Below are positions 54,627-60,422 of a stretch of DNA of 64,000 nt, in pieces (the first letter of the stretch is position 1; each line of letters opens with the position of its first letter). The DNA is from a virus: positions 32,001 through 96,000 of IMG/VR virus record IMGVR_UViG_3300008448_000004; one strand, given 5' to 3'. The notes beneath the pieces were generated by a model, which did not search any database, was not told the DNA's origin, and worked only from the letters and a program-made list of their open reading frames with translations. Made by a program: the position numbers and the translations under genes.

Positions 54627-54663
54627 AATTTGTTTCTCCTTATATGTCAAAGAACAGTAGCTG

Positions 54664-58131: not shown

Positions 58132-58208
58132 CTGTTAATATTTTAAATATAGTGACTATTTATAAATATACAAACGGTTTCAGTATCTTTAACTTAAATT
58201 TTTAAAAC

Positions 58209-58376
58209 ATGAAAGAACAAGTATTAGGCCTAGTAAGACACGCTTTAACTTTTGTCGGCGGTATTATCGTCGCTAAAGGACTTCTTGACGAGGCTCTTTT
58301 TCAAGAAGTACTCGGCGGAGTTATGACTCTAGTCGGTGCTGTTTGGTCAATTGCTTCTAAGAAGAAAGCAGCTTAA
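58209..58376 (+). CDS. Small two-TM holin-like protein (55 aa, not in ORF track)
   Basis: MKEQVLGLVRHALTFVGGIIVAKGLLDEALFQEVLGGVMTLVGAVWSIASKKKAA*, with own CTATTTATA motif and terminator. Confidence 0.75.
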   Translation: MKEQVLGLVRHALTFVGGIIVAKGLLDEALFQEVLGGVMTLVGAVWSIASKKKAA

Positions 58377-58399: not shown

Positions 58400-58426
58400 G
58401 AGCCGGCTTTATGCCGGCTTTTTTTT
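58400..58426 (+). terminator. Intrinsic terminator of the plus-strand holin-like gene
   Basis: AGCCGGC TTTAT GCCGGCT TTTTTTT. Confidence 0.8.
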
Positions 58427-58427
58427 G

Positions 58428-58499
58428 TACTCGGTACGGGAATCGAACCCGTATCTTATCCGTGAAAGGGATACGTCCTAACCGTTAGACGAACTGAGC
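58428..58499 (-). tRNA. tRNA-Glu(TTC)
   Basis: Cloverleaf, loop CTTTCAC. Confidence 0.93.
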
Positions 58500-58502
58500 G
58501 TG

Positions 58503-58573
58503 TTACTCCGACTGGGCTCGAACCAGGAACTGCAGAATCAAAATCTGTCGTGTTACCATTACACCACGGAGCA
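58503..58573 (-). tRNA. tRNA-Gln(TTG)
   Basis: Cloverleaf, U1-A72, loop TTTTGAT. Confidence 0.92.
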
Positions 58574-58579
58574 ATGTAG

Positions 58580-58651
58580 TAGAGTAGACAGGGCTCGAAC
58601 CTGCACGCACTTGCTCCCAAAGCAAGGGACCTACCATTGGTCAACTACTCT
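58580..58651 (-). tRNA. tRNA-Pro(TGG)
   Basis: Cloverleaf, loop TTTGGGA. Confidence 0.9.
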
Positions 58652-58656
58652 ATTAG

Positions 58657-58728
58657 AGCTCCCATCCGGAATCGAACCGAATTATCTTGATTACAAGTCA
58701 AGTGCATCGCCTGCAATGCTTTGGGAGC
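58657..58728 (-). tRNA. tRNA-Thr(TGT)
   Basis: Cloverleaf, loop CTTGTAA. Confidence 0.9.
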
Positions 58729-58734
58729 TGTTAG

Positions 58735-58807
58735 CGCGGATGGTAGGACTCGAACCTACAACCTTCGGTTTTGGAGACCGCAACTCTACCAATTGAGCTA
58801 CACCCAC
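58735..58807 (-). tRNA. tRNA-Trp(CCA)
   Basis: Cloverleaf, loop CTCCAAA, G73. Confidence 0.93.
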
Positions 58808-58811
58808 GTTT

Positions 58812-59315
58812 CTACTTATTCAATATGTCAATGATCTTCTTCTTTATACCAGCTTCTTTCAGACCCTGGTTATCTTTAGTTCTAACAAACTTATCCCTTG
58901 CATCTCCCTTGTCTAATAGGTCTTTTAAGTCTAAGTCGTCTAGAATAACAAACTGTTTTAAATCAAAGTGATTAATGAAATCCAGCACTTCATTTGCTCG
59001 GTTTTTTTCGAGCCAAGAAAAGCTTACAGGTTTATTCTTTGTAACAGATCTTGGCATTTTATTAATACCGTTATGCTTAAAGATTTCAGCTAACTGAACT
59101 AATCCCCAATGGTGCCTCCAATCAGAACTTACTACAATCTCTGCTTCTGTTTCTTCTACTATTTCGTTTAGGATCTTAACGCATTTCTCATCGAAAGGAT
59201 AAGGTACTCCGAGTTCTTTTGCCCATTCGTATTTTTTCCAAAAGTTAACTCTATTCCTCATAAATTGCTCTTCTGTTGCTACTACTCCGTCGATGTCTAA
59301 AAAAATTACTTTCAT
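58812..59315 (-). CDS. HAD-superfamily protein (HAD_SAK, RNA-repair-associated type)
   Basis: IFLDIDGV, IVVSSDWR, FVILDD, FVRT..GL. Confidence 0.85.
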   Translation of the reverse strand: MKVIFLDIDGVVATEEQFMRNRVNFWKKYEWAKELGVPYPFDEKCVKILNEIVEETEAEIVVSSDWRHHWGLVQLAEIFKHNGINKMPRSVTKNKPVSFSWLEKNRANEVLDFINHFDLKQFVILDDLDLKDLLDKGDARDKFVRTKDNQGLKEAGIKKKIIDILNK

Positions 59316-59329
59316 ATACTTCAGTTAAT

Positions 59330-59360
59330 AAAAAAGCCCCAGATTTTTATATCCAGGGCT
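59330..59360 (-). terminator. Attenuator-type intrinsic terminator upstream of the HAD gene
   Basis: AGCCCTGGAT ATAAAA ATCTGGGGCT TTTTT, 15 nt before the ATG. Confidence 0.8.
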
Positions 59361-59387
59361 CTTTGTAAATTCTTATATTGGTAAAAG

Positions 59388-59468
59388 TTATCTTACAATA
59401 CATGCCCTGTTGCTTACTGGTTCTTGCCAGCTAGTCGTGGGGGTTGTGTATGTGTTAGATATCTTCAT
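59388..59468 (-). CDS. Putative leader peptide (26 aa)
   Basis: MKISNTYTTPTTSWQEPVSNRACIVR*; 3' part can pair with the terminator 5' arm. Confidence 0.6.
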   Translation of the reverse strand: MKISNTYTTPTTSWQEPVSNRACIVR

Positions 59469-59504
59469 ATGATTGTTACTTGTATAAATACACTTGATAA
59501 ATAA

Positions 59505-60375
59505 AAAACGACCTGAGACTACAGTCTTTATGTTAACTCTTTTGCAGCATTATTGATTCTCTGCTTGTCCAGTACCTTTTGAGCACTATGTTAACAATGC
59601 CGGTTGTTAGGTCAACCACCCCTTGAGGTGCTTTTATTGTGGTCTACTCTCTTCTTACTCTAACCGTTCTACCCTGCCGGGCAGATAAGTCCTTGCGGGA
59701 CTACGATCTTTTCATAAGAATCATTATTGGCTTGCGACCTTTAATGGCAATGGACAACCCATTACTGTGTAGGCATCTTTCGACCGCACCTGGCAAGCGC
59801 TTAAGCTTATTATGTTATTGTAATTTTGCAATCCAATGCAAATAAGTTTGACTTGTGGATTATAGAAGTAGTGGCTTGCCCTGAGCCTGCTCAGCTTTTG
59901 GCCGAGTTGATACTCAACTACTCCTTGAGATGTCCCCATCTCGGTTAACTTTAGACTACTTCATTACAACACCTTGGTAGGTAATCGTAAAGGATATTAG
60001 CAGCACCACCTGTTCTACATCTTACCTTTCGGTTTTAAGTACCCTTTCAGTTCTGGGCGTCGCAATAATATGGTTGGATAAACTATATGTCTTGCATGCA
60101 CCCTTCGGGTTAATCTTATTGCTCTTCCGAGCTCAACCAAACGACCCACATCGCTTAGTCTACCAACCACTTTCCCTACAGTGTTACCCTCAGTACTAAA
60201 GGTCAGTAGATATCCCGATTGCATACTCGAGCTCCTTCCGAAAGGAGCCGCAGATCCACTCAGTCAAATGAATCCACTTTATACCGGTTTCCCGGTTTAT
60301 TTAACGACTATATGCCGCCGACTGCTATTTACTACCGATCTTACTCTCGCAAGCGATTTCAGACCTTCGAAGGGA
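59505..60375 (-). ncRNA. Large structured ncRNA, GOLLD-like candidate (~870 nt, ends approximate)
   Basis: No credible ORF; many tetraloop hairpins (ACCGG-GAAA-CCGGT, GCTCCT-TTCG-GAAGGAGC, ACC-GAAA-GGT, GTCCC-GCAA-GGAC); own promoter and boxA; next to a tRNA array. Confidence 0.65.
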
Positions 60376-60382
60376 TAACAGT

Positions 60383-60394
60383 ATGTCAAAGAAC
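60383..60394 (-). promoter_or_regulatory. boxA-like antitermination element
   Basis: GTTCTTTGACAT just downstream of the promoter; also at 54644-54655, and GTTCTTTACAAT before the tmRNA (26245-26256). Confidence 0.6.
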
Positions 60395-60422
60395 TTCTGT
60401 TGTTATCTTCTTATCTATAAAT

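Follow-up and report, generated by a model that had tools for sequence, protein, structure and literature searches.

A candidate leader-peptide attenuator in front of a phosphatase and tRNA operon of a freshwater phage, and comparable modules in other phages

We describe a regulatory module from a 64,000-nucleotide stretch of DNA (the window), which comprises bases 32001-96000 of one 180,934-bp freshwater phage contig with 37.5% G+C (IMG/VR record IMGVR_UViG_3300008448_000004). The module lies entirely on the minus strand of the window and consists of a short leader, an intrinsic terminator, a gene for a HAD-family phosphatase (HAD in the following) and five tRNA genes. Judged from its sequence, it is probably a ribosome-mediated leader-peptide transcription attenuator that gates the operon of the phosphatase and the five tRNAs. 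A preliminary description of the window had put forward a leader-peptide terminator/antiterminator switch before a HAD-tRNA operon, and this core proposal is supported by conservation in related contigs, by more distant modules and by the way in which leaders track their tRNA arrays.

The evidence consists of the parts of the module with their order and spacing, the conservation of the open reading frame (ORF) and of three alternative helices and, for the class of such modules as a whole, a correspondence between leaders and arrays. The parts in the window are the following.

59491-59483, minus strand: promoter-like motif (G)TATTTAT(A); 14 nt lie between it and the leader ATG
59468-59388, minus strand: leader ORF of 26 codons plus TAA, read from the sequence
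59466-59384, minus strand: hairpin P1, which encloses the entire ORF (regions 1:2, the anti-antiterminator)
59429-59418, minus strand: run of codons 14-17 (TGG CAA GAA CCA), where the leader hairpin has its apex
59409-59392, minus strand: region 2, the 5' strand of the antiterminator, within the last seven leader codons
59369-59354, minus strand: region 3, the 3' strand of the antiterminator, in the spacer and the 5' arm of the terminator
59364-59330, minus strand: intrinsic terminator (regions 3:4) with T-run; the HAD ATG follows after 14 nt
59315-58812, minus strand: HAD_SAK_2 phosphatase gene, the first behind the terminator (Pfam PF18143, E 6.5e-26)
58807-58427, minus strand: tRNAs Trp(CCA), Thr(TGT), Pro(TGG), Gln(TTG) and Glu(TTC) (ARAGORN and Rfam)

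The ORF has exactly the 26 codons originally listed for it, the Pfam match bears out the HAD_SAK gene behind the terminator, and all five of the tRNAs named earlier are present, spaced 2-5 nt apart according to ARAGORN and not 3-6 nt as first given. With just 14 nt from the T-run to the HAD ATG and a gap of 4 nt from HAD to tRNA-Trp there is no room for another promoter, and the operon accordingly depends on read-through of the terminator. No second attenuator was found in the window.

The motif in front of the leader is a recurrent one. In the whole genome, [ACG]TATTTAT[AT] occurs in 49 copies on the gene strand and in 10 on the opposite strand, and 29 of the 49 have the start of an ORF of at least 80 amino acids, with an ATG, no more than 40 nt downstream, where 2.1 would be expected at random. 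The distance of 14 nt between motif and ATG at the leader is the typical spacing for genes of this phage. The motif resembles a single-element late-type promoter. Scanning for sigma-70-type promoters yielded nothing specific; the Bacteroidota-type -33/-7 motif, equally unspecific, was found at 2 sites (1.9 expected). What precedes the presumably regulated genes thus appears to be a short ORF with its own start, close to a putative promoter. A further copy of the motif (58161-58169) precedes tRNA-Met(CAT).

Relatives of the module were found through HAD homologues of 69-89% identity. They are metagenomic contigs, here labelled with L-numbers, and belong to these lineages.

Lineage A: the window, the near-identical contigs L172-L184, and L001/L002 (leader and terminator at L001:375-524)
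Lineage C1: L186-L190 (leader and terminator at L186:2348-2488)
Lineage C2: L009-L011 (leader and terminator at L009:2558-2759; no GOLLD RNA)
Lineage B: L003-L008, L200 and L201-L203 (GOLLD RNA, terminator and HAD)

The leader ORF is open over 26 codons in the window, 28 in L001/L002, 26 in L186-L190 and 47 in L009/L010. The L001 leader differs in length from that of the window by two in-frame insertions of 3 nt each; the start context is identical in lineages A and C1, and the other two frames hold 1-6 stops. When random substitution was simulated at the observed levels, with indels uncounted, the ORF stayed intact in 13% of trials for L001 and in 5% for L186. The promoter motif is kept in L001 and L186 and occurs in a variant form in L009 as well as in L354, L365 and L388, which are introduced below. 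A stretch of about 95 nt with promoter motif, ORF and antiterminator strand is missing from lineage B; this lineage keeps the terminator, and no tRNA follows its HAD. This joint loss of leader parts and tRNAs, a single event that we count once, is suggestive. Other searches for relatives were less productive: IMG/VR yielded no close relatives with the HAD protein alone, only unrelated DNA with a 16-nt leader-context pattern and a terminator-plus-HAD-start pattern, and no tRNA arrays near relatives of the GroEL encoded upstream. A scan of GTDB genomes gave distant HAD homologues without the module, blastn against INPHARED phages gave tRNA matches and GOLLD pieces only, and about 160 more distant HAD_SAK_2 loci had no leader and mostly no tRNAs.

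The 195-nt spacer folds into the long hairpin P1, which holds the whole ORF, followed by a 14-bp terminator, and this fold beats 200 of 200 dinucleotide shuffles (z -3.4). The terminator hairpin itself (59364-59331, with the T-run ending at 59330) has a predicted energy of -17.9 kcal/mol. It had been described as a 10-bp helix with a T-run; those 10 bp, two of them G-U, are the core of the hairpin, which A/U tracts lengthen to 14 bp. The same arrangement of P1 and terminator is obtained in independent minimum free energy folds of the window, L001 and L186 and in the RNAalifold consensus. Both helices of the competing antiterminator, CAGGGC/GCCCTG and TTGTAA(G)/(T)TTACAA, are found where the preliminary description had drawn them.

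Pairing was counted in an alignment of seven sequences, with the partner strand slid as control. P1 and terminator had 95% of cells paired, compared with 32-52% when the partner was slid, and the antiterminator had 96.7% of cells paired with two compensatory pairs in L001; over both structures the slid-partner controls ranged from 16 to 59%. In L009 both antiterminator strands are altered in sequence and their complementarity is kept. The terminator is present in every lineage including the leaderless one, and the changes in its arms preserve pairing (L200, L009). Conservation of both structures in relatives had been proposed as a check on the switch, and P1, antiterminator and terminator are indeed kept with compensatory changes. 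When region 1 was masked, as it would be by a ribosome that holds the Trp codon in its A site, the 3' portion of the ORF paired with the 5' arm of the terminator in 4 of 4 lineages. Compared with dinucleotide shuffles, the duplex between upstream RNA and terminator arm reached P values of 0.028, 0.062, 0.010 and 0.012 in the four lineages. The region therefore contains what look like an intrinsic terminator, an antiterminator exclusive with it and, in P1, an anti-antiterminator.

From these parts we infer that the leader is translated, that its ribosome stalls when charged tRNA is scarce, and that read-through of the terminator is the output. A promoter of the phage's own TATTTATA type would start transcription, and translation of the 26 leader codons would begin immediately. 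A ribosome that reaches the stop codon (59390-59388) would cover region 2, so that the terminator could form and transcription would end 14 nt before HAD. If the leader were left untranslated, region 2 would be kept in P1 and the 14-bp terminator would likewise form. A stall within about the first 16 codons would mask region 1 and leave region 2 free to pair with the 5' arm of the terminator, and RNA polymerase would then read into HAD and the tRNAs. The predicted geometry agrees with the earlier claim that a stall at codons 14-15 frees the antiterminator strand: region 2 is free with the ribosome at codon 14, as it is for any position at or before codon 16. The cause of the stall would be scarcity of charged tRNA for the early codons (one each for Trp, Gln, Glu and Pro, several for Thr), and the output of the operon would be proportional to the shortage of the tRNAs that it supplies. 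A P1-type anti-antiterminator is absent from the folds of L009 and of the more distant L034; there an untranslated leader should give read-through, whereas P1 in the lineage of the window should give termination.

Part of this evidence could also be accommodated by a constitutive terminator that belongs to a unit of GOLLD RNA and small ORF, in which case HAD and the tRNAs would be expressed by leaky read-through, the ORF would be untranslated or encode an unrelated micro-protein, and the alternative pairings would be incidental. Lineage B, which keeps the terminator without any leader, is in line with such an arrangement, as are the conserved residues N5, T8, P10, W14, Q15 and C-terminal R-x-C-I-x-R and several synonymous leader changes between the window and L186. 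It seems quite unlikely to us nevertheless, because in every lineage, as in modules of unrelated sequence from other phages, the ORF includes a complement of the terminator at its 3' end, exceeding 94-99% of shuffles in each case, and because promoter, ORF and antiterminator were lost jointly with the downstream tRNAs. A constitutive terminator also leaves the correspondence between codons and arrays unexplained.

Conserved residues would equally be expected of a nascent peptide of the TnaC type, in which Trp-Gln and the C-terminal residues would arrest the ribosome on a small molecule and so control termination. We regard this as very improbable. The single Trp is invariant and stands 12 residues from the C-terminus in the window and in L186, but its spacing to the end is 14 in L001 and 36 in L009; the C-terminal residues are conserved in three lineages, but they are encoded by the very RNA strand that forms region 2. 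Moreover, arrest at the stop codon would place the ribosome over region 2, which would favour termination, and the leaders of the distant modules are without such a motif.

For the attenuator proposed here, the codons of the leader are of particular concern. The window leader contains cognate codons for 5 of the 5 downstream tRNAs (null mean 2.7, P 0.025), and no other of the genome's 479 ATG ORFs with 20-40 codons has all five codon kinds and a run of four. TGG and CCA of this run are not independent, because they form the two arms of one 4-bp apical stem (CTGG/CCAG). The match between leader codons and the five tRNAs that had been noted earlier is present in that each of the five is sampled; the total of cognate codons is not enriched. 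The additional match of ATA and AGA to the more distal Ile2 and Arg tRNAs is not supported: these codons are common (3.0% and 2.3% of usage), ATA is lost in relatives, and the link looks like chance. The amino-acid diversity of the window leader is ordinary, with 15 kinds in 26 residues (P 0.40). In the L009 leader (L009:2558-2701) 20 of 20 amino acids occur within 47 residues (P 0.018), and the L034 leader (L034:3111-3209) has 19 of 20 within 32 residues (P 0.009).

Within the clade, TGG followed by a Gln codon is invariant in 4 of 4 lineages, and tRNA-Trp is the one tRNA found 3' of HAD in every leader-bearing lineage. Only lineage A retains GAA and CCA; in the L186 leader GAA and the in-frame CCA are gone. 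In lineage C2 the terminator is followed by tRNA-Phe, tRNA-Lys, HAD and eight more tRNAs, and the L009 leader covers 9 of 10 tRNAs. Tracking of tRNAs by leader codons appears to be loose within this clade.

Beyond the clade lies L034, with a HAD of 36% identity; here HAD and a 16-tRNA array are separated by an ORF of 32 codons (leader and terminator at L034:3111-3289). A 10-bp stretch over the stop codon complements the terminator, which is unrelated in sequence, and beats 99.35% of shuffles; 31 codons of the leader serve 15 of the 16 tRNAs (P below 1/5000). Relatives of the L034 HAD in IMG/VR provided five further modules, unrelated in sequence to the window leader.

L354:1925-2072: L354 module
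L365:1616-1743: L365a, first of two modules in one phage
L365:5173-5349: L365b, second module of this phage
L388:4498-4666: L388 module
L396:7357-7525: L396 module

In 4 of these 5 modules the complement of the terminator inside the ORF is significant (P 0.002-0.027), and in L365b it is weaker (P 0.12). Cognate codons are enriched in the leaders of the distant modules (P 3e-5 to 0.05). The two leaders of L365 are complementary in composition and so are their two tRNA arrays, which provides a control within one genome. L388 and L396 have homologous leaders and arrays of ten and six tRNAs, respectively, and 8 of 8 amino-acid replacements from the L388 to the L396 leader go to residues of the six-tRNA set of L396 (P about 4e-5). 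For eight leader/array pairs including that of the window, the true pairing gave the top amino-acid Jaccard sum among 40,320 permutations (P 5e-5) and codon-level F1 gave a permutation P of 1.5e-4; these values are optimistic, because the pairs come from related phages that share leaders and arrays by descent and are not phylogenetically independent, a problem of which the contrasts within L365 and between L388 and L396 are free. The suggested check, namely whether leader codons track their arrays, thus had a positive outcome across the eight pairs, with tracking that was loose within the clade (L001/L002, L186). A small ORF and terminator in L364 lacked a complementary strand (P 0.57) and were left out as a module.

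With promoter, small ORF, terminator with in-ORF complement and tRNAs, the window module fits this class. It differs from the other members in that HAD stands between terminator and array and in that its leader is less array-pure. With five tRNAs, an inserted HAD and a leader that is only loosely matched to its array, it is a modest member of the class.

Several points weigh against an attenuator that responds to the tRNAs of its own operon. The covariation was seen within one clade, in three to four of its lineages, and the sequences compared had also served to derive the structure. The total of cognate codons is not enriched in the window leader (6-7 of 25, P about 0.09-0.12) or in that of L009 (P 0.75). 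Classical attenuators have runs of regulatory codons, and the sensitivity of the window leader is uncertain because it has one or two codons only per tRNA. L001 and L002, two independent contigs and the nearest relatives whose array differs, keep and even lengthen the codon run, to Trp-Gln-Thr-Glu-Pro, with tRNA-Trp as their only downstream tRNA. Substitutions between the window and L001 are spread evenly over codon positions (5/6/7 by hand count in the alignment), so the peptide itself is not under clear purifying selection; in near-identical variants 3 of 3 single-nucleotide polymorphisms within the ORF are non-synonymous, and 2 of the 3 delete Thr codons. Even substitutions and non-synonymous polymorphisms are therefore as expected if the reading of the leader, and not its product, is what counts. 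Finally, transcripts from the GOLLD unit, which is headed by a boxA-like element, might ignore the terminator.

These observations raise the alternative that the switch is real but reads the general status of translation rather than particular tRNAs, the codon content of the leader being largely historical. Ribosome availability, coupling of RNA polymerase and ribosome, or the stage of infection are candidates for what would be read, and any slowed leading ribosome would open the operon. Such a sensor would agree with the lack of codon enrichment in the clade of the window, with L001/L002, where the same leader persists and four of the five tRNAs are absent, and with L009 and L034, where mere lack of translation would give read-through since the anti-antiterminator is missing. 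A codon-blind sensor would not be expected to have leaders that track their own arrays across phages, nor the complementary leaders of L365 or the directional replacements between L388 and L396, and we consider this alternative unlikely.

If the module is a leader-peptide attenuator, its nearest counterparts are the classical ones (trpL, hisL, thrL, leuL, pheL, the multivalent ilvGMEDA and thr leaders, and pheST). Shared with these are a promoter-proximal short ORF, mutually exclusive 1:2, 2:3 and 3:4 pairings, a terminator that immediately precedes the genes under control, a stop codon from which the terminating ribosome would cover region 2 and, less certainly in the window, codons related to the product of the operon. 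The classical systems govern biosynthetic or synthetase genes and use runs of one codon, whereas the window module precedes phage tRNA genes and a phosphatase gene and has one or two codons per tRNA. The best Rfam hits of the region are sub-threshold (His_leader RF00514, 21.8 bits against 49; Thr_leader RF00506, 20.5 against 55) and reflect a resemblance of architecture only, not membership of these families. In Flavobacterium, leader-peptide attenuation has been reported as likely (PMC9723704).

T-box riboswitches also sense the status of tRNAs and choose between terminator and antiterminator. Their specifier loop and T-box bulge make direct contact with uncharged tRNA, and translation plays no part. 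The window element, of about 140 nt, carries a conserved ORF and has no specifier or T-box sequence; Rfam gave no T-box match at the gathering threshold in the window, nor any at E up to 10 in 59300-59520. Ribosome-mediated attenuators with leader ORFs precede antibiotic-resistance genes, for instance those found by Term-seq in Firmicutes. There, as is proposed for the window module, a stalled leader ribosome opens a terminator and induces genes that relieve a translational block. Those leaders sense a drug-stalled ribosome, whereas in the window module a shortage of tRNAs is proposed to induce those tRNAs themselves. A search of one literature library found no paper tying attenuators or leader peptides to phage tRNA genes, and the class appears to be an undescribed use of classical attenuation.

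The reasons for which phages carry tRNA genes, and the times at which they use them, have been argued for decades, with codon compensation set against counter-defence (PMC10264068, PMC11555353). These papers treat phage tRNAs as counter-defence against host systems that cleave tRNAs, which would be a reason for a phage to replace specific tRNAs on demand; judged by title and abstract, their subject is what phage tRNAs do and not how they are regulated. If the leader does sample the codons of its array, the phage would measure decoding capacity and supply tRNAs on demand, and it becomes a testable question which limitation opens which array. The reach of classical attenuation would then include phages, Bacteroidota-type hosts and the tRNA genes themselves. 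The combination of promoter, mini-ORF, terminator with in-ORF complement and tRNA array would also serve as an annotation signature for metagenomic phages.

The preliminary description had named host anticodon nucleases as an example of a trigger. We treat this as one candidate in the form of tRNA-cleaving host defence, next to host shut-off and plain codon demand. It is possible, although on balance doubtful, that the module is an inducible counter-defence circuit, in which depletion of tRNAs by a defence system or by the phage's own host shut-off would stall the leader ribosome and so bring on replacement tRNAs together with end healing by HAD, and that the same circuit, with leaders rewritten for each array, governs the arrays of many large phages. 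The name HAD_SAK_2 comes from an association with RNA-repair systems. The AlphaFold model of HAD has a pLDDT of 97 and its neighbours are generic HAD phosphatase folds only; no informative solved relative was found by sequence or by fold, and that HAD may heal RNA ends is a guess.

Array content differs widely between close relatives. The tRNA-Pro(TGG) of the window (58579-58651) is 97% identical to its counterparts at L009:3764-3837 and L010:1283-1356, with flanks of about 73%, and both observations suggest exchange or turnover of single tRNA genes. All ten tRNA genes of the contig lie inside the window. On its minus strand the order is GroEL, GOLLD RNA, the stretch with leader and terminator, the HAD_SAK_2 gene and the five tRNAs; 3' of the array follow a bidirectional terminator, a convergent holin gene and then additional tRNAs.

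62119-60473, minus strand: GroEL, upstream of the GOLLD RNA
59925-59510, minus strand: 3' domain of the GOLLD RNA (Rfam RF02032, 260.5 bits against a gathering score of 150)
58836-58821, minus strand: weak boxA-like copy at the 3' end of HAD, about 14 nt before tRNA-Trp
58400-58420, no single strand: bidirectional terminator at the end of the operon, common to the tRNA array and the convergent holin gene
58209-58376, plus strand: holin of 55 amino acids (PF23987), antisense between the two tRNA groups

The entire GOLLD RNA extends to about 60400 and its 3' domain adjoins the attenuator on the upstream side. GOLLD RNAs are known to occur near phage tRNA islands (bioRxiv 10.1101/2024.12.08.627333). 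In the clade of the window the RNA is found in lineages A, B and C1; L009-L011 lack it and have a cREC_REC gene instead. Because L009 has leader and terminator without GOLLD, this RNA is unnecessary for the switch.

A full boxA-like element, GTTCTTTGACATATTGG, stands between the terminator and the first tRNA in L034, L365b, L388 and L396, and L365a has the one-base variant GTTCTTTGAAATATTGG. The weak copy in the window is doubtful because it is not conserved in L001 or L186. The conserved sequence GTTCTTTGACATA(TTGG) occurs directly before RNA genes (GOLLD, tRNA arrays), in the window at 60382-60396 and 54643-54657 and in L034, L365, L388 and L396 in the interval from the terminator to the first tRNA. 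It resembles the boxA of rRNA operons and is a candidate promoter, processing or antitermination site.

The 'rod RNA' that precedes tRNA-Arg(TCT) has no significant structure (z -0.7). A tmRNA is encoded by the phage at 25805-26242 on the minus strand (Rfam RF00023, 65 bits against a gathering score of 47), and the antisense holin with its shared bidirectional terminator is kept in all related contigs. In two of the near-identical contigs (L173:1203-1886 and L178:1260-2120) the phage HAD and the 5' half of tRNA-Trp are joined to a bacterial tRNA-Trp, secE and nusG, and the NusG proteins are 91-92% identical to Chitinophagaceae proteins. L173 and L178 are probably assembly chimeras formed via the common tRNA-Trp segment. 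Their joins give a hint that the host is a member of the Chitinophagaceae (Bacteroidota) and that the tRNA-Trp of the phage is host-like.

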